This document shows, piece by piece, positions 14,025 through 22,485 of a DNA stretch of 64,000 bases (its first letter is position 1; each line of letters opens with the position of its first letter). The position numbers and the translations under genes were made by a program. The notes beneath the pieces are model-generated. The model made no database searches, was not told where the DNA came from, and saw only the letters and a program-made list of their open reading frames with translations. This DNA is from Escherichia coli (GTDB taxonomy: Bacteria > Pseudomonadota > Gammaproteobacteria > Enterobacterales > Enterobacteriaceae), in NCBI RefSeq assembly GCF_003018255.1, contig NZ_CP027440.1; one strand, written 5' to 3'.

Positions 14025-15995
14025 TCAGAACGTATACTCGATACCTGCCCAGAAATTGCGACCTTCTTCAATAAACCCTTCACTGTAGGCATATTTGGTA
14101 TCAAACAGGTTATTGACCGACGCATTGACGCTGAAGCCATGACCTAAGGTGTAATCGGCTCGAATGTGAGTCACCGCAAAACCGGCGGCTTTTTGTGAAC
14201 CGTCACTGTTGCTGTAGCTGGAGGAACGCGCCTCTTCCGACAGCGTTACGCTTAACGGCTCCCACGGTTTGAGAGTCATCCATGCGGTCATTGTCTGCGT
14301 TGGCAGATCGGTTATCTTGCCGATGTCTTTGCGTTTGGCATCAGCGTGGATCAGGGCGTAGCTCAATCCTACATCCAGTATATTGCTGATTTTCCCCTTA
14401 ATACCGGCATCCAGACCGCTGTAATCCACCGTGCCGCTGTTCTGATTTTGAATGGTATCGGCATCGATATTGTGCGAGAGGATGGCATCACTCACCCGGT
14501 TATAGTAAACGCTGACCTCAAACCCCCAGTCGTGCGTGAAGGCACCATTCCAGGTTAAATCCACCCCGCGCGCGCGTTCCGGCTTGAGCTGCGGGTTAAC
14601 AATCGCTATCTGGTTATACGCAGGTTTGGACGTGGTATAGCGTTCTTTCAGCGTCGGAAAGCGTGTGCGGTCATAGTACGAAAGCGCCAGCGTGTCTTCA
14701 TTGGCAAAGTGGTATTTCCCCATCACCTGCCAGTTAAAAGCTGACTGATTGTTGTCGTCATAATGGGTGATACTGCCATCTTTCTCATGTTTTTTCGCTT
14801 CTACGCTATCGCGCCAGTCATAGCTGATTCCAGCCACGACATCGACATTATCGGCAGCAGCCCATTGATATTCACTGGCGAGCGACCAGGTACGATCTTC
14901 ATAGCGATCGTAAGCGGCGTGCGGCGCACCTTTTTCCCGGTGTACGTCATCTTTCCAGTTAACGGCAAACGACAGCAGATCGTTTTCACGCACATCGGCT
15001 GCCAGTTGTAACCCGGCACCGTCGCTGTAATCGGAATAATGGCTGTAGCTGCCTTTTTTATTTTTCAAATCAGCCAGCGAGTTGTACATCATCAGCGTAT
15101 TTTCAAAGGTATCGCGATACAGCCGACTTTTCAGGGTAAAACGATCGTTTAGTTGGGTCGTTCCCTGATAATAAAAACTTTCTTTGTCATACTCTGGCCA
15201 CTGCCAGTAGCGTGATTTTTGACCACTATTTCCACTGTATGGCGGATTATCTTTTTCACCATCCTGCTTAATGTAAGTCAATGTGTATTCATCGTTTTCG
15301 CGTGGTGTAAAACCGAGCTTCACAATGCCGCGTTTATCATCAGCCGATGAATTAATCATCTTGCCGTGTTTGCCTGCAATATCATTATTTACACCATGCG
15401 GCAGGCCGAGAAAATCCTGCTTTAGCTGGCTACCGCTGACTTGCAAATACCCCAGATCGCTGCTGGCGGCAAATGAAGCATGCATATCGTAGGCATTGTC
15501 CTGGCTACGGCTCCATCCCTGGCGATATCCCAGATTTGCTTCCAGAGGTTTTGTTGGCTTCTGGGTGGTGATATTAATGGCTCCGCCCATCTGATTAGGC
15601 CCCTGAAGCAGCGACGAATACCCTTTGGAAACTTCAACTGCCCCCAAATTGTTGGTCAGAATCCGCGCCAGATCGAGGTTGCCGTCATAGGGAACATAAA
15701 TGGGCACACCGTCGAAATAGACTGGCACCTGACGACTATCAAAGCCACGAACTTTGACCTGTTCTTCGTTGCGGCTACCTGACTTTTGCAGCACCACGCC
15801 GGGGACGACACTTAATGCCTGAGCGACATTCTGTTTATCCAGGGCCTTCATGGTGGGGTGATCGAGAACGGTGGTCGTCGTCGATGATACCGGACTGGAC
15901 CATACGGTCAGCGTGTCACTCTCCTGAGCCGCTAAGGCCTGCTGGGTAAAGGCAAGTGATAATGCTGTGCAGAGATAACGTTTTTTGAGTCTCAT
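14025..15995 (-). CDS. TonB-dependent outer-membrane receptor (accessory, not in K-12 layout)
   Basis: About 656 aa with signal peptide MRLKKRYLCTALSLAFTQQALA, TonB-box-like DTLTVWS near the mature N-terminus, and a C-terminal aromatic residue (…AGIEYTF); start set to the second Met. Confidence 0.85.
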   Translation of the reverse strand: MRLKKRYLCTALSLAFTQQALAAQESDTLTVWSSPVSSTTTTVLDHPTMKALDKQNVAQALSVVPGVVLQKSGSRNEEQVKVRGFDSRQVPVYFDGVPIYVPYDGNLDLARILTNNLGAVEVSKGYSSLLQGPNQMGGAINITTQKPTKPLEANLGYRQGWSRSQDNAYDMHASFAASSDLGYLQVSGSQLKQDFLGLPHGVNNDIAGKHGKMINSSADDKRGIVKLGFTPRENDEYTLTYIKQDGEKDNPPYSGNSGQKSRYWQWPEYDKESFYYQGTTQLNDRFTLKSRLYRDTFENTLMMYNSLADLKNKKGSYSHYSDYSDGAGLQLAADVRENDLLSFAVNWKDDVHREKGAPHAAYDRYEDRTWSLASEYQWAAADNVDVVAGISYDWRDSVEAKKHEKDGSITHYDDNNQSAFNWQVMGKYHFANEDTLALSYYDRTRFPTLKERYTTSKPAYNQIAIVNPQLKPERARGVDLTWNGAFTHDWGFEVSVYYNRVSDAILSHNIDADTIQNQNSGTVDYSGLDAGIKGKISNILDVGLSYALIHADAKRKDIGKITDLPTQTMTAWMTLKPWEPLSVTLSEEARSSSYSNSDGSQKAAGFAVTHIRADYTLGHGFSVNASVNNLFDTKYAYSEGFIEEGRNFWAGIEYTF

Positions 15996-16020
15996 AGAAT
16001 AAATTCCGTTTAACAAAGAA

Positions 16021-16875
16021 TTAAATAGAGGCTGCGGGTTGCAGACTGACTTTAATGTCAGCTGGTGTCGCGTAATAAGGCGCGGAGGTAATAAAAAGGC
16101 GAATGCCGCAGTCGAGGTAATTTTTGAGTGTTGTCAGATTAATTCCGCCGGTCAGAGCCAGCGTGCAGTGAGGAGCCAGCGACGGTGCTATTTGCGCAAT
16201 TTCAGTTGCCTGTTGCGGATTAAATTTGTCGAGCTGAAGTACGTCTGGTTGCGCGCGTAACGCGGCGATTGCCTCTTTCGGCGTGTCGGCTTCAACAACT
16301 ATTTTCTTCTCGGGTGCGTGGCGGCGTAACTGATTGATTGCGCCTGACCAGTCCTGATTGTCATGAAGAAAATGACGGTGGTTGGCAAACAATAATATGG
16401 TTTCCGCACATCCGGCACGATGAATCAGTCCTCCGGCAGCCAGAATTGCCTGCGAGGCCAGTAAGCGGGTGCCCGGAATTGCTTTTCGGGTGCAGGCGAT
16501 ATTGCCATCAGGGTAACGTTCACGAAGTAACGCCAGCATTTGAGCGAGATAATCAGAAACACCGCAACTCCACTCCAGCACATTCTGGACTGCCTTCCAT
16601 CCCTGATGAAGTGCTGCGGCATTACCCTGCGCACGGATTAGCCGCTGACCCGCGTTCGCTTGTGAACCGTCGCTGACTGCGTCATCAATAGTTAATCCCA
16701 GCGTAGTTAACATCTTACACGCGACAGAAATTCCGCTGACGCAGCCGCCCTGACGGTGAAAAAACTCTATATAGCCATGCTGGTGTCCAATATTTAATGC
16801 TCGCGTGGTCAGGTCACCGCCCTGGATATCTTCCAGAAGTAACGCATCGATTTGTGCCTGAGAAAGGAAAATCAT
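16021..16875 (-). CDS. ModD / NadC-like (quinolinate phosphoribosyltransferase family) protein
   Basis: 284-aa ORF with blocks that align by eye to E. coli NadC (LLEDIQGGDLTT; TRKAIPGTRLLASQAILAAGG..NHR; VEADTPKEA..LQLDKF; LALTGGINLTTL); 4-nt ATGA overlap with the upstream methyltransferase gene. Confidence 0.75.
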   Translation of the reverse strand: MIFLSQAQIDALLLEDIQGGDLTTRALNIGHQHGYIEFFHRQGGCVSGISVACKMLTTLGLTIDDAVSDGSQANAGQRLIRAQGNAAALHQGWKAVQNVLEWSCGVSDYLAQMLALLRERYPDGNIACTRKAIPGTRLLASQAILAAGGLIHRAGCAETILLFANHRHFLHDNQDWSGAINQLRRHAPEKKIVVEADTPKEAIAALRAQPDVLQLDKFNPQQATEIAQIAPSLAPHCTLALTGGINLTTLKNYLDCGIRLFITSAPYYATPADIKVSLQPAASI

Positions 16876-17684
16876 CGCAGTGCCTCTTGCGGTACGCTAT
16901 CCCACCAGATGAGCGCCCAGTCGCGGCTGGCAGGGGCGAGGGCACGAGCATCTTGTTGTTGATACCAGCGATATAACCGCTCACGCTCATCGTCGTTAAG
17001 CGCGCCCAGACTCCAGCTGACGTTCTGCTCAAAACGTTCCCAGGTGCTGTTATCCTGTTGGCAATTTTGTCCGCGGATAAAATCAACGTGAGCATAAATT
17101 CCCATCTGATACAGGACGTTGAGCGCAAAGATATAGTTGGGTAATTCGACCACTTCCCGACCAGCCGCCCGCTGAATGGCTGGAGAGACGAACGAGGTGC
17201 TGACCAGATGAGTCGTATAGACGCGAAGCCGTGCCTGATTATTCAGTTTGCTCATTGCCTGGCGCATATCAGCCACCAGAGTGGAGCGGGAAGCCACGGC
17301 AATATCGCAGCGTGGCAGGTCACTCCAGTCCTCTTCCCAGGCGCGCTGGATCCAGTGGACATTGTCTGCCTTTAGCGCGGCGGCGCGACGGGCGGCAACG
17401 TTCAGCATCCCCTGACTGTAATCAACGCCATAAATCGTCGTGAGTTTGTCCGCCAGCGCCAGCGATACGGTACCCGGTCCGCAGCCCATATCGAATAAGG
17501 TTTGCGCGCCTTGCAGGTCAATTTTTGAGGTCAGTTGTTGCAGGTAGCTGTCCGTCGGCGAGGCGCAATTTTCCGCCATTTTTTCCGCCCGTTGATCCCA
17601 GTGATCCGGCGTTTTTTCTGTGCGATGGGCCAGCCTGAGTTGCTGAAGGTAAAGGTCTGCAAAATCAATATCGTCAATGAGCAT
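16872..17684 (-). CDS. Class I SAM-dependent methyltransferase
   Basis: 270-aa ORF with Rossmann motif I LFDMGCGPGTVSLALA and a downstream acidic motif (VDYSQGML); operonic between the ABC ATPase and the ModD-like gene. Confidence 0.75.
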   Translation of the reverse strand: MLIDDIDFADLYLQQLRLAHRTEKTPDHWDQRAEKMAENCASPTDSYLQQLTSKIDLQGAQTLFDMGCGPGTVSLALADKLTTIYGVDYSQGMLNVAARRAAALKADNVHWIQRAWEEDWSDLPRCDIAVASRSTLVADMRQAMSKLNNQARLRVYTTHLVSTSFVSPAIQRAAGREVVELPNYIFALNVLYQMGIYAHVDFIRGQNCQQDNSTWERFEQNVSWSLGALNDDERERLYRWYQQQDARALAPASRDWALIWWDSVPQEALR

Positions 17685-17693
17685 GATTTTTCC

Positions 17694-18452
17694 TTAGTGC
17701 TTAATTGCAGAGAGGTGATGGTGAATCTGGTCGGCAGAAACCCGGTACAGGGCAGCCAGTTTTTTCGTTGTTAACTGTTCGGTCGGTAAGCCTTGTGTTA
17801 CTCGTCCATCTGGCTCTACCTGGATAATGCTGTCGGCAATGGCGTTTGCATGGAGCGGATGATGAGTCGACATTAACATTGTCATGCCGTTATTTTTGAG
17901 CTGCGCCAGCGTGTCCAGAAGTTGGATCTGATGACCGAAATCGAGGCTAGAGGCAGGCTCATCCAGTAATAACAAGCGCGGTTGCTGGACGAGTGCACGG
18001 GCGATTAAAGCCAGCTGACGTTCACCGCCGCTAAGCGTATTCCAGCGTCGTGTCGCCAGATGCAAAATGCCCAGCTTTTCCAGTTGCTCCGTTGCTTTCA
18101 GGCGTTCTTGCTTACCGGGAACGGAAAAAGCGCCTATGGTGGGGGCCTGGCCCATCAACACCATATCCAGCACACTAAAAGCAAAAATGCCGTCGTGCGC
18201 CTGCGGCACCCAGGCAATAGCCTGCGCGCGCTGGCGATGGCTGAGTGTCTGCACAGGGAGGCTATCCAGTAAGATCTCGCCTTTTAATAACGGTATAACG
18301 CCAAGAATGGAGCGCATGAGTGTGGTTTTGCCGCAACCATTGGCTCCTAACAGACAACAAATTGTTCCTTGCGACAGGGTGAAGGACACGTCGCGTAGCA
18401 CCGGATGGCGGGAGTAACCCAGAGACGCATGACGGACGGCAAGCAAAGTCAC
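17694..18452 (-). CDS. ABC transporter ATP-binding protein (FecE/FepC-like)
   Basis: Walker A GANGCGKTT, ABC signature LSGGERQ and Walker B LLLLDEP are present; start assigned to GTG in a GTGA overlap with the permease stop (the track ORF is extended to 18590). Confidence 0.8.
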   Translation of the reverse strand: MTLLAVRHASLGYSRHPVLRDVSFTLSQGTICCLLGANGCGKTTLMRSILGVIPLLKGEILLDSLPVQTLSHRQRAQAIAWVPQAHDGIFAFSVLDMVLMGQAPTIGAFSVPGKQERLKATEQLEKLGILHLATRRWNTLSGGERQLALIARALVQQPRLLLLDEPASSLDFGHQIQLLDTLAQLKNNGMTMLMSTHHPLHANAIADSIIQVEPDGRVTQGLPTEQLTTKKLAALYRVSADQIHHHLSAIKH

Positions 18453-19429
18453 TGGCGACCTCCGCGTAACAACAAAAACAGGAAAAACGGTGCGCCAACA
18501 AAAGCGGTCAGAATGCCAAGTGGGATTTCTGTTGTTCCAATGCTGCGTGCCAGCGTATCGGTAAGCAGGAGCAGAATCGCGCCAGTACACATTGCCATGG
18601 GCAACAGCTGCTGATGGTTATGACCGGTCAACAAGCGGGCAATGTGCGGAACGACCAGGCCGACCCAACCAATTATGCCCGCTATTGCTACCGTGCTGGC
18701 GGTGATGAGTGTGGCACAGACAATCAATCCAAAGCGCAGACGTGTCACGTTCAGTCCCAGCGAACGGGCTTCGTCGTCGGAAAGCGTGAGTAAATTCATG
18801 CGCCAGCGGAGAAAAAACAGGGGCAAGGAGCCTATGAGAATGATCGGTGCAGCATAGCAGAGATCGCGTAAGGTCACGGTGGACAGCCCCCCCAGCAACC
18901 AGAAGGTAATTGACGGTAACTGGGTATAAGGATCGGCCAGCGTTTTTATTAGCGATATCCCCGCTCCGCACAACGTTCCTAACGCAATGCCTACCAGCAC
19001 CAGGGTTAAGATCGGATCGTGGCGGGTCACCCGACGCGTAATCAACCAGACGCCCGCGACCACCATCAGCCCGCCGCAAAATGCGTACAGCTGGATGTAA
19101 ACAATGGATAATCCCCACAGGATTGCCGCGCAGGCACCAAGTCCGGCACCGGCGGAGACGCCTAAAATATCCGGTGACACTAAGGGATTACGGAACATTC
19201 CCTGATAGGTGGTTCCGGCCCCTGCCAGCGCCGCGCCCAGAAACAGCGCAGCAAGAATACGCGGCACGCGGATTTGCCAGAAGACAATTTGTTCCTGCAC
19301 AGTAACATTTTCTTGACGAAGAATGAGCGCCAGCAGTTGCTGCATATCGAGATGATAAGCCCCACTTACGGCGGCAAAAGTGATACTGATAGCTGCCAGC
19401 AGCAAAATACATCCGTTTACGGTTCTCAT
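18449..19429 (-). CDS. ABC transporter permease (FecCD/BtuC family)
   Basis: 326-aa polytopic membrane protein typical of iron-chelate/B12-type permeases; start overlaps the stop of the upstream binding-protein gene by 1 nt. Confidence 0.8.
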   Translation of the reverse strand: MRTVNGCILLLAAISITFAAVSGAYHLDMQQLLALILRQENVTVQEQIVFWQIRVPRILAALFLGAALAGAGTTYQGMFRNPLVSPDILGVSAGAGLGACAAILWGLSIVYIQLYAFCGGLMVVAGVWLITRRVTRHDPILTLVLVGIALGTLCGAGISLIKTLADPYTQLPSITFWLLGGLSTVTLRDLCYAAPIILIGSLPLFFLRWRMNLLTLSDDEARSLGLNVTRLRFGLIVCATLITASTVAIAGIIGWVGLVVPHIARLLTGHNHQQLLPMAMCTGAILLLLTDTLARSIGTTEIPLGILTAFVGAPFFLFLLLRGGRQ

Positions 19430-20451
19430 TAGCTCGCCACCAATTTTTGATAGTCGGCGTCACTTAATGGGCAATGCCAGAACAGTTGGGCGTAATGCTG
19501 CATGTCACTTTTAAACTGGCGATTGATGGCGGGATCCAGCCAGGCGTGAAGTCTGCGTAATCCCAGAAGACGGTTGATTCCCGGCGGGGCATCCAGCCAG
19601 CCAAAGGGCAGGCCACTTAAAAATAAGATGCGTTGTTCCGCAACCGCTTTCACGCCCTGCCAGAGAGGATCACGACGAATAAAATCTGCAGTAACGGCCT
19701 CCTGAACCAGAATAATATCCGGCTGCCAGCGCAGGAGATTTTCCATGGAAACCTGTGTCAGACCGTGGCGATCGGCTATTTGCGCGACGTTGTGCAAACC
19801 TAATAATTCCGCCGCCTCGGTATGCAACGAACCCTGTAAGCCCGTTTCCAGCCCTCGAGGACCGCGCGCAGCATAAAAGCTGAGATTAGCGGCGGGTGAG
19901 GTGGCGAATGCCTGAGCTTCACCAACGAAGCGGCTGGCGAGATTGGCTTGTTCTGCGGCGCGGTGCTCTTCGCCTAACGTTTTGCCAAGCGTTGTTAACT
20001 GTTCTGCTGATTGTTCCAGTTTCCCGTTAAGCAATAACCAGGGTATTTGTGTCTGTTCGCTAACCTGCCGTGCCTGGGAGATCCAGGTTTCATCCGTATT
20101 GCCGCAATCAACGACCAAATCGGGATGTAACGCCATAAGCCCTTCCAGCGAGAGTGTACTGGCGCGCCCGGCGAGTCGTCCCAGCCTGGGGAACTGGCGA
20201 ATGTGCTCTGGCAATGGAATTAATGCCTGACGGGCAAAATCAAAAGAGGAAAAACCGACCATTTTTTCTGGCGCGACAGCCAGCAATAGTAAATCGGCGG
20301 GCGCGCCTGCGCTGACGATGCGTGTAATGTTTTGGGCTTCGGGAAGCGTCAGTGAGGCCCAGAATTTGACTGATTGTGCAAAGGACGGCAGATGATGCAG
20401 GAACAATGTCGACGCAAGAATCTGTGTAAACCTCCGTCTGGTTAGTGACAT
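19429..20451 (-). CDS. Periplasmic substrate-binding protein (class III, FecB/BtuF-like)
   Basis: Signal peptide MSLTRRRFTQILASTLFLHHLPSFA with a twin-arginine-like TRRRF; start chosen at the Met preceded by AGGA 7 nt upstream; first gene of the operon. Confidence 0.75.
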   Translation of the reverse strand: MSLTRRRFTQILASTLFLHHLPSFAQSVKFWASLTLPEAQNITRIVSAGAPADLLLLAVAPEKMVGFSSFDFARQALIPLPEHIRQFPRLGRLAGRASTLSLEGLMALHPDLVVDCGNTDETWISQARQVSEQTQIPWLLLNGKLEQSAEQLTTLGKTLGEEHRAAEQANLASRFVGEAQAFATSPAANLSFYAARGPRGLETGLQGSLHTEAAELLGLHNVAQIADRHGLTQVSMENLLRWQPDIILVQEAVTADFIRRDPLWQGVKAVAEQRILFLSGLPFGWLDAPPGINRLLGLRRLHAWLDPAINRQFKSDMQHYAQLFWHCPLSDADYQKLVAS

Positions 20452-20463
20452 AAGTAATATCCT

Positions 20464-20482
20464 GATAATTAAAACCGCTATA
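20464..20482 (-). promoter_or_regulatory. Candidate Fur box upstream of the accessory transport operon
   Basis: GATAATTAAAACCGCTATA matches about 13 of 19 positions of the Fur consensus GATAATGATAATCATTATC by hand alignment; a TTGACA hexamer lies further upstream on the operon strand. Confidence 0.3.
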
Positions 20483-20787
20483 TACTTACACATATAGCGA
20501 AAAAGATCATGTTTGATGTCAAAATTTGTCTAAAGAGACGGAATGATTTGCTTGTTGCTTAAATAACACTTTGTTCCACAAGAAAATTGTCAGGGAGAAT
20601 GGGGAGTGGGGGAAAATATAAATAGAGGTGTAATGATTAACAAGTTGATAAAATAAAATTAAAATCTTCTCTAATAAAAGAAAATAAAGGCATAGACCGT
20701 AGAAAGAGTGGTATTTGGTATTTCGTGGTGAAGAAAGAGCAATGCCAATTTTATGCACGTAATGGCATTGCTCGATATACAGTAAAG

Positions 20788-22485
20788 TTAAGGCGTAGGT
20801 TCCGCCTCATTTTGTTTTACCGGCTGTGTTGTTGATTCACTGAGTGGACGCGTCGCCGGAACATTGTCGCACGGTTGCTCTTTCGGGCAGATCAAATCCA
20901 GCATTTTCAGCGTCACGCCATTGGTCCAGCCAAAGCCATCCTGTAATGGATATTCGCCACCGCCGCCCCCTGTTCCGGTGGTGCTGACATCATATTTTTC
21001 CACCAGCTTTTTCTCCCGGTCATAGGTGTGCTGAACATTGGTCAGGAAGTGCCAGCTAATGTCCATCGCCACCTCTTTTTGCCCGTAGTTTTGTAATCCT
21101 TCTGTCGCGACCCACTGCAACGGTGCCCAGCCGTTTGGCGCATCCCATTGTTGCCCACTTTTCACCGACGTGGTGTTCAGGCCGCCTGGTTGCAGCAGAT
21201 GTGTTTTCGTCGCCGTCGCCATTTTGCTGGCGCGATCTTTCGCTGCCGCATTGACGTACAGCGGGAACAGGGCGGCCGCGGTTAACTGATTGCGCACTTT
21301 ATGACTTTTCAGGTCGTAATCGGCATACCAGCCTTGTTGATCGTTCCACAGGTATTTTTCGATCCCTTTTTGACGGGCATTCGCCAGCGTTTCGTACTGG
21401 TTTGCCATCGCGTTATCTCCGGCAGCTTTGCTGGCGCGGGCGAGGATTTTTTCCATTTTAAACATCAGGCTGTTCAGATCGACCGGTACGATGCTGGTGG
21501 TGCGTAAGGTATTTAACTGCTGCGGATTGTCCATCCAGCGCGAGCTGAAATCCCAGCCAGACGCAGCGGCAGAGCGCAGGTCGCGGTAAATTTCAGTGGC
21601 AGGTCGATTCGGATTGCTTTTGGCGGTGGCAATATCTTCCACCCATGACTCTGGTCGTGGCGTATCGCGATCGTCCCAGTAGCGGTTGAGAAGGGTACCA
21701 TCCTGAAGTTTGACAACGCGTTTTTCCTGTTGTCCGGCTTGCAGGTTTTCAACACCGTCCATCCAGTAAGCATATTCTTTTTGCATTTGCGGCAGGTATT
21801 GCTTCAACGCGGCATCGCCTTCATGCTGCGCCAGTAACTCTACCATCAGGGCAAAGAATGGCGGTTGTGAGCGGCTTAAATAGTAACTGCGGTTGCCGTT
21901 GGGAATATGCCCGTAAGTGTCTATTTCATGAGCAAAATTGGCCACCATATCCGCGACTTTATCCCAGTGACCACTTTCGGCAAGCCCTAACATGGTGAAG
22001 TAACTGTCCCAGTAATATACCTCGCGAAAACGTCCGCCCGGCACAACATAAGGTTCCGGCAGCGGTAACAGAGAATCCCATTTTTCGGTATTTTCGGTAG
22101 AACGCGTTAATACCGGCCAAAGTCCGTCAATATGTTCGCGTAGTGATTGCCCCTCTGGCGGAACATATTTCTCGCCCTCTTTCGGCAGGGTGAAATTGAC
22201 GTTAACGAAATGGCGTAGATCAAATCCGCTCTGGTTTTGCTGCATCCGATAATCAGCAAGGATCATCAGCGGATCGCTGTTCGGCACGGCATCGGCAAAG
22301 GTTTTTTGGTCCGGAAAAAGTTTGGCGTTTTGCACATCATTAAACAGCGGCCCTAATAAAATATCAGGCGGCTGTGGCGTTACCGGTGTTTCTTCTGCCT
22401 GCACCGATAGCGCAGCGAAACACAAAAAGATGCAGGCTGGAATTAACGCCATTTTTAGCGGGCGAGAAGCTGCGGGGGATTTCAT
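20788..22485 (-). CDS. treA: Periplasmic trehalase
   Basis: 565-aa ORF recognised as TreA (signal peptide, then [22 protein letters not shown]). Confidence 0.95.

Follow-up and report, generated by a model that had tools for sequence, protein, structure and literature searches.

The locus and its first gene

The window analysed here is a stretch of 64,000 nucleotides of Escherichia coli chromosomal DNA (contig NZ_CP027440.1 of assembly GCF_003018255.1). It contains a six-gene cassette, all on one strand and inserted between treA and ymgE, whose first gene encodes the substrate-binding protein of an ATP-binding cassette (ABC) importer. The N-terminus of this protein is probably a functional signal for the twin-arginine translocation (Tat) pathway, and the cassette as a whole is likely to take up molybdenum or tungsten (Mo/W) and not iron, as its annotation would have it. 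The features of the first gene are:

19429..20451, minus strand: binding-protein gene, 340 amino acids, Peripla_BP_2 family, class III/cluster A fold (open reading frame, RefSeq coding sequence, PF01497, PDB 4pag, AlphaFold2 model with Foldseek)
20377..20451, minus strand: predicted signal peptide of 25 residues, MSLTRRRFTQILASTLFLHHLPSFA, followed by QS, with a predicted signal peptidase I cut between SFA and QS (sequence and orthologue conservation)
20422..20442, minus strand: twin-arginine motif T4-R5-R6-R7-F8-T9-Q10, codons ACC AGA CGG AGG TTT ACA CAG (TatP pattern, position-specific scoring matrix, conservation)
20460..20463, minus strand: Shine-Dalgarno sequence AGGA, read from the sequence, 8 nucleotides 5' of ATG 20451

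The reading frame runs from ATG 20451 to a stop at 19429, and its translation begins MSLTRRRFTQILASTLFLHHLPSFAQS. Both the frame and the N-terminus are exactly those of an initial annotation of this DNA, and the Prokaryotic Genome Annotation Pipeline (PGAP) of RefSeq places the start of WP_001558984.1 at the same codon, under the product label 'iron ABC transporter substrate-binding protein'. A CAGGAT also precedes the start of the Citrobacter orthologue. Orthologues were compared as 76 distinct N-termini, 49-99% identical, from Escherichia, Citrobacter, Salmonella, Klebsiella, Serratia, Yersinia, Providencia, Shewanella and others. A Met lies exactly three residues ahead of the S/T-R-R in 75 of the 76, which confirms the start at 20451, and the N-terminal position of the RR motif is thus secure. 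A mechanical reading of the frame extends it by 14 codons to ATG 20493; this codon has no Shine-Dalgarno sequence, lies inside a ModE-like palindrome (described below) and is not conserved, and was ruled out as the start.

The three Arg codons of the motif (20431-20439, AGA CGG AGG) are all rare in E. coli and fall within the first seven codons. In one Shewanella locus (L006:8001-8030) the called start of the orthologue (MTSGLIGFMDVQRR...) abuts the ModE box, and translation probably begins instead at an internal Met (MDVQRR...) that agrees with other orthologues from Shewanella.

The N-terminal signal peptide

Five lines of evidence, all drawn from sequence, bear on whether this segment is a Tat-type signal, and conservation among the orthologues is the strongest of them. 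The first Arg of the pair is present in 75 of the 76 N-termini, the sole exception being a Lys, which is a known tolerated variant of the Tat motif (PMC1182353), and the second Arg is invariant (76/76). The residue ahead of the pair is S or T in 72, the second residue after it is F or L in 75, and the fourth is Q in 62, while the 'x' position of the motif is free (1.5 bits) and the h-region drifts. Different genera use different Arg codons (AGA CGG, CGT CGT, CGC CGT, CGT AGA, CGC CGC), so what is conserved is the amino acid. The cleavage site, of the A-x-A type, has a conserved P at -4, a small residue at -3 and an A at -1 in 63 of the 76, and an Arg or Lys occurs within the h/c region in 48.

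Beyond the orthologues, relatives at 35-46% identity (taken as representatives of 50%-identity clusters) have, for the most part, textbook motifs, among them NRRQFLKS, SRRHFIKT and NRRSFLKS. In more distant cluster representatives Sec or lipoprotein signals predominate, and of 112 full-length representatives of the family, 30 have the TatP pattern.

The E. coli protein itself matches the default TatP pattern, RR.[FGAVML][LITMVF], with RRRFT. A position-specific scoring matrix was built from the 21 E. coli Tat signals in Table 2 of PMC7549933, with leave-one-out scores for these signals, and a control set of 14 Sec or signal recognition particle (SRP) signals was used. The query scored 19.3 bits, which is in the upper half of the Tat panel (6.5-25.5), and the controls did not exceed 7.1. 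Its maximum Kyte-Doolittle hydropathy in windows of 12 and 15 residues is 1.23 and 1.24, compared with means of 1.74 and 1.51 for the Tat panel and 2.21 and 1.97 for the Sec controls. The resemblance of TRRRF to S/T-R-R-x-F-L-K, on which the initial annotation rested its suggestion of a Tat signal, is therefore borne out by conservation across genera, by the matrix and by hydropathy. A lipoprotein signal was ruled out, as there is no Cys or lipobox in the signal.

The closest parallel for the n-region is found in E. coli SufI (FtsP), whose signal peptide is MSLSRRQFIQASGIALCAGAVPLKASA (PMC7549933 Table 2). MSLSRRQFIQ of SufI and MSLTRRRFTQ of the query are nearly identical, both have Q where the consensus has K, and the two signals are 27 and 25 residues long. 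The likeness ends there: SufI is a multicopper-oxidase-like protein of cell division, and its mature part is unrelated to the binding protein.

Fold and family relationships

The initial annotation's assignment as a substrate-binding protein stands. Pfam identifies Peripla_BP_2 (PF01497) with E=1.1e-16, and an AlphaFold2 model built on 79 homologues (predicted local distance difference test, pLDDT, 92.4; predicted template modelling score, pTM, 0.87) shows two alpha/beta lobes with a long helix, residues 162-183, between them. The modelled fold is that of class III binding proteins, which serve type II ABC importers. The best solved relative by sequence is PDB 4pag (E=1.3e-25, residues 36-335, 25% identity), and Foldseek with the model also places 4PAG first (template modelling, TM, score 0.79-0.84), followed by MolA, YiuA, BhuT, BtuF and CeuE. 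Closest in both sequence and structure, 4PAG is a solute-binding protein of Sulfurospirillum deleyianum from structural genomics whose own function is unassigned.

MolA of Haemophilus influenzae (HI1472, also HI_1472) is a more distant relative and the only characterised one. The sequence match is remote (E=1.3e-7, a partial alignment at 20% identity), and Foldseek gives a structural match with E=1e-15 and TM 0.66-0.69. The likeness is that of a class III protein of a type II importer, MolBC-A, whose gene adjoins modD; at 20% identity MolA is not an orthologue of the E. coli protein, and 4pag is much closer. MolA is reported to bind molybdate and tungstate with low affinity and is part of a 'secondary molybdenum transporter' of H. 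influenzae that is encoded with modD (PMC3928620, PMC7759655). As described, the MolBC-A cluster has neither a TonB-dependent receptor nor a methyltransferase, unlike the E. coli cassette. None of the NCBIfam iron-complex families comes near its cut-off with the E. coli protein (FecB-like, 31.8 bits versus 320; FepB, 24.3 versus 205; IsdE, 20.7 versus 299).

The rest of the cassette

Downstream of the binding-protein gene the cassette consists of:

18449..19429, minus strand: FecCD-family permease of a type II ABC importer, 326 amino acids, whose start overlaps the binding-protein stop (BtuC/FecD/FhuB-like NCBIfam hits, all below the equivalog cut-offs; RefSeq)
17694..18452, minus strand: ABC transporter ATP-binding protein, 252 amino acids by the RefSeq start (open reading frame, NCBIfam, RefSeq)
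16872..17684, minus strand: class I S-adenosylmethionine-dependent methyltransferase, 270 amino acids (weak hits only, the best being CpaM at 43 bits against a cut-off of 180; RefSeq)
16021..16875, minus strand: ModD, quinolinate phosphoribosyltransferase-like, 284 amino acids (TIGR01334 modD, 501 bits against a cut-off of 179; RefSeq)
14025..15995, minus strand: TonB-dependent outer-membrane receptor, 656 amino acids by the RefSeq start, with a Sec-type signal MRLKKRYLCTALSLAFTQQALA (RefSeq)

The receptor falls below every NCBIfam cut-off, and the solved structures similar to it are so in the plug domain only.

The order of binding protein, permease, ATPase, methyltransferase, usually ModD, and receptor is syntenic in six related loci: those of Citrobacter (L002), Serratia fonticola (L004) and Shewanella (L006), and L008, L009 and L011. 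The overlapping genes for the FecCD-type permease and the ATPase are present downstream in all related loci whose flanking sequence is long enough. The methyltransferase gene is kept in the cassettes of Citrobacter, Serratia, Shewanella, L008 and L009, and modD is missing from those of Shewanella and L009.

Within E. coli the cassette is an accessory element. Of 5426 complete genomes, 2148 have the binding-protein gene, and in several of them it is 100% identical. K-12 MG1655 lacks the cassette, and about 660 bp with ycgY (L013:2057-2719) stand in place of about 6.8 kb (approximately 14049-20827 of the window). K-12 shares only the last 24 bp or so of the receptor gene, making this a clean presence/absence polymorphism. 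Of 2151 matches to the binding-protein gene, eight are on plasmids and not on chromosomes. Some database entries from E. coli and Shigella are truncations or fusions, with the binding protein joined to part of the ModD-type quinolinate phosphoribosyltransferase, to part of FecCD or to trehalase (P0010, P0078, P0095, P0013, P0018, P0020), which suggests gradual loss of the cassette through deletions in some lineages.

A ModE-like operator upstream

The operator consensus of E. coli ModE is ATCGNTATATA-N6-TATATANCGAT (PMC545781). A palindrome resembling it lies just ahead of the binding-protein gene and is the only such site in the window; a ModE score of 17 was not reached in any of 200 shuffles of the 19-kb locus. 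Sites found here and in the related loci are listed below as matches out of 20:

20474..20501, no strand assigned: ModE-operator-like palindrome TTCGCTATATG-TGTAAG-TATATAGCGGT, 17/20 match to ATCGNTATATA-N6-TATATANCGAT, ending 22 nucleotides 5' of the start codon
E. coli (this window): binding-protein gene 17/20; receptor gene, –
Citrobacter, L002 (7949): binding-protein gene 18/20; receptor gene, –
Serratia fonticola, L004 (7955, 12489): binding-protein gene 18/20; receptor gene 16/20
Shewanella, L006 (7973, 11757): binding-protein gene 18/20; receptor gene 20/20
L009 (7923): binding-protein gene 17/20; receptor gene, –
L008 (12577 for the receptor gene): binding-protein gene 14/20; receptor gene 18/20
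L011 (4876), where the receptor gene is first in the operon: receptor gene 20/20

Sites of 17-18/20 thus stand at the same position ahead of four of five orthologous binding-protein genes, the related loci including metagenomic relatives. Counting the receptor genes as well, boxes of 17-20/20 precede one or other of the two genes in seven loci. The box is kept in position while the intergenic DNA and the upstream genes around it differ.

The palindrome could also be taken for a terminator hairpin (20475-20500), with 11 pairs of which only three are G-C. This reading was rejected because the ModE consensus recurs ahead of orthologues with unrelated upstream neighbours and because a better hairpin for treA exists elsewhere. 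The latter, GCAATGCCA...TGGCATTGC followed by TCTTTCTT (20740-20780, minus strand), lies just past the treA stop at 20788 and looks like the treA terminator; a simple terminator scan missed it and flagged the ModE palindrome in its place. An Rfam scan of the leader and intergenic region (20300-20900) gave no match to a riboswitch or to any other RNA family.

Export route

Binding proteins mostly use Sec, and the initial annotation had described this as their normal route. The statement holds as a generality, while the exceptional status it gave to Tat export does not, since FhuD and FutA2/Tery_3377 are precedents, and a Tat-linked binding protein is not very unusual. FhuD is among the known or predicted Tat substrates of E. 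coli (PMC1182353, PMC7549933 Table 2). It shares with the query the Peripla_BP_2 domain, the architecture of a type II ABC importer with a TonB-dependent receptor, and an N-terminal twin-arginine signal, SRRRLL. No close sequence relation between the two is detectable, however, as FhuD is absent from the PDB and NCBIfam hits of the query. FhuD is also a core gene product, is Fur-regulated and binds hydroxamate siderophores, whereas the query is accessory and lies behind a ModE-like box, with no convincing match to a Fur box (13/19). The second precedent, cyanobacterial FutA2 and its Trichodesmium counterpart Tery_3377, is experimental: changing RR to KK abolished export (PMC6254336). These are likewise ABC-importer binding proteins with a twin-arginine signal, but of the ferric-ion binding class and not Peripla_BP_2, in another organism and with another ligand.

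Several observations weigh against a Tat signal in the E. coli protein. At 2.38, the hydropathy of the eight-residue core ILASTLFL falls between the means for Tat and Sec signals, and the c-region has His-His, and no Arg or Lys as a 'Sec-avoidance' residue, ahead of the SFA site. Taken alone, the TatP pattern also picks up Sec signals of Gram-negative bacteria, about 7% of them, and Sec exports many Bacillus subtilis proteins that have a pattern of the TatP type (PMC1182353). The Citrobacter and Salmonella orthologues (RRMFA) fail the strict TatP pattern. Finally, neither of the Tat signal models, Pfam PF10518 (TAT_signal) and TIGR01409, has a hit to the E. coli protein. These misses were not counted against Tat because the same models miss known Tat controls: TIGR01409 also misses FhuD, while PF10518 misses TorA and, at E<=0.1, finds only six of 12 E. 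coli Tat controls. At the same threshold PF10518 matches six of 26 family N-termini (a count obtained by subtraction), one of which gave the lowest E-value in that run. The binding protein is absent from a TatP-based list of substrates for the extraintestinal pathogenic E. coli strain PCN033, whose possession of the cassette was not checked.

The alternative that survives best is a dual route. The signal would be recognised by Tat but also be competent for Sec; the protein would use both pathways or, when unfolded, chiefly Sec; and the defect of a tat mutant would be partial. The intermediate hydropathy of the core and the c-region without Arg or Lys fit such a signal, and the signal peptides of FhuD, MdoD and YcdO are classed as 'TAT + SEC' (PMC5872382 Table 2). 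However, there is just one Lys in the 152 RR positions of the orthologues, which argues for selection on Tat recognition and not on generic positive charge; a basic residue is present in the h/c region of 48 of the 76; and the hydropathy over 12 and 15 residues is very low, and poor for Sec. A dual route is thus possible, though on balance unlikely.

An ordinary Sec signal, in which the three Arg residues are simply a charged n-region and the likeness to Tat is coincidental, would suit the general habit of binding proteins, the looseness of the TatP pattern and the lack of a TAT_signal hit. Yet Sec n-regions tolerate exchanges of Lys and Arg as well as positional drift, whereas here the RR pair, the S/T before it and the F/L after it are held in a fixed register across Enterobacterales and Shewanella. 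Relatives at 40-46% identity have the canonical RRxFLK, and the matrix score is far above every Sec control. Coincidence of this kind is improbable.

The Tat pathway exists largely to carry cofactor-loaded folded proteins, and this invites a further possibility, that the protein goes out by Tat because it picks up a small molecule before leaving the cytoplasm, such as a chelator that ModD and the methyltransferase make or modify, and crosses the membrane together with it. The cassette is unusual in encoding two cytoplasmic enzymes without a known role, and the relative MolA binds free molybdate weakly, with a dissociation constant of about 100 uM as quoted in PMC3928620. On the other side, there is no gene for a Tat proofreading chaperone among the cassette genes; no cytoplasmic cargo is known for the Tat-linked FhuD and FutA2; the Tat motif persists in Shewanella and L009, whose cassettes lack ModD; and nothing directly supports an import protein carrying cargo outwards. 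Loading before export is therefore very improbable. The initial annotation had held that Tat would imply folding or ligand loading in the cytoplasm; of these, folding is what established Tat biology entails, and nothing supports the loading.

A wrong start codon, which would move RRR away from the N-terminus of a signal peptide, can be dismissed: the mechanical frame does reach ATG 20493, some database entries have 323-325 amino acids and two JGI calls begin MFAQ..., but the upstream codon is contradicted by the Shine-Dalgarno sequence, the orthologue register and the PGAP call, and a downstream start would strip the n-region from an otherwise complete signal peptide.

A functional Tat-targeting signal is thus the probable reading of the N-terminus, and exclusive dependence on Tat is rated lower. 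According to this reading, the binding protein would fold in the cytoplasm, TatBC would recognise the T-R-R-R-F motif, TatA would move the folded protein across the membrane, and signal peptidase I would cut after S-F-A. Some leakage through Sec may occur, as with the FhuD signal. The simplest reason for the use of Tat would be fast or obligatory cytoplasmic folding of the rigid two-lobe fold, and not the loading of cargo.

Probable import of molybdenum or tungsten rather than iron

As the simplest reading of the locus, iron regulation was rejected, since the best match to the Fur consensus GATAATGATAATCATTATC within 20452-20790 reaches only 13/19, and the 'iron' annotation of the cassette is probably wrong. 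From the conserved ModE boxes and the gene neighbourhoods, the operon is predicted to be repressed by ModE-molybdate and to import Mo/W species. Neighbouring genes with a molybdenum context, some of them beside more distant relatives of the binding protein that are of the Tat type, reinforce the link: the L011 relative adjoins genes for a formate dehydrogenase, a molybdopterin enzyme (L011:1-4463), the relative in L012 directly follows a gene for a TOBE/molbindin-like protein of 68 residues (L012:784-990), and the Serratia cassette is followed by a gene for a MOSC-domain protein (L004:14556-15197). The cassette is therefore likely to be a Mo/W-responsive, TonB-dependent uptake system. Weighing against the Mo/W part are the remoteness of MolA (E=1e-7, 20% identity) and the status of ModE binding as a prediction only.

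Given the ModE-like operator and the association with ModD, the operon would probably be active under molybdate scarcity. The binding protein, once in the periplasm, would take the ligand delivered by the TonB-dependent receptor of the cassette and dock on the permease/ATPase. The imported species is probably Mo or W, either as the free oxyanion or as a chelate, and not iron; the presence of a TonB-dependent receptor and two cytoplasmic enzymes suggests that the cargo may be a chelate and not the free oxyanion. Taken together, a binding protein with a Tat signal, belonging to a type II importer in a Mo/W-linked operon, is the explanation that best accounts for the locus, and it is held to be reasonably likely.

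A more specific proposal is tentative. The cassette might represent an undescribed ModE-repressed, TonB-dependent Mo/W pathway for what would most likely be a 'molybdophore'-type chelate, processed by ModD and the methyltransferase. Such a pathway would span about 40% of E. coli genomes, many Enterobacterales, Shewanella and others, and would be annotated everywhere as an iron transporter. In a still more extreme variant, the binding protein would leave via Tat already carrying a co-ligand made in the cytoplasm. A search of a limited body of literature returned no account of the cassette, of ModE-regulated TonB-dependent receptors or of molybdophore uptake; an earlier description elsewhere, for example in RegPrecise, is possible.

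Implications

For the pan-genome of E. coli, the binding protein is a further probable Tat substrate, and for the Peripla_BP_2 family a further probable case of Tat use; this helps annotation but is not surprising. Lists of Tat substrates based on K-12 have missed it because K-12 lacks the gene. The probable mis-annotation of the cassette is a more interesting lead than the Tat signal itself. If the ModE boxes are functional, a widespread 'iron ABC transporter' cassette would really be a TonB-dependent system induced by molybdate starvation. This would bear on the role of ModD, and on how Gram-negative bacteria take up molybdenum and tungsten across the outer membrane under scarcity, for example in the inflamed gut during respiration with molybdoenzymes.

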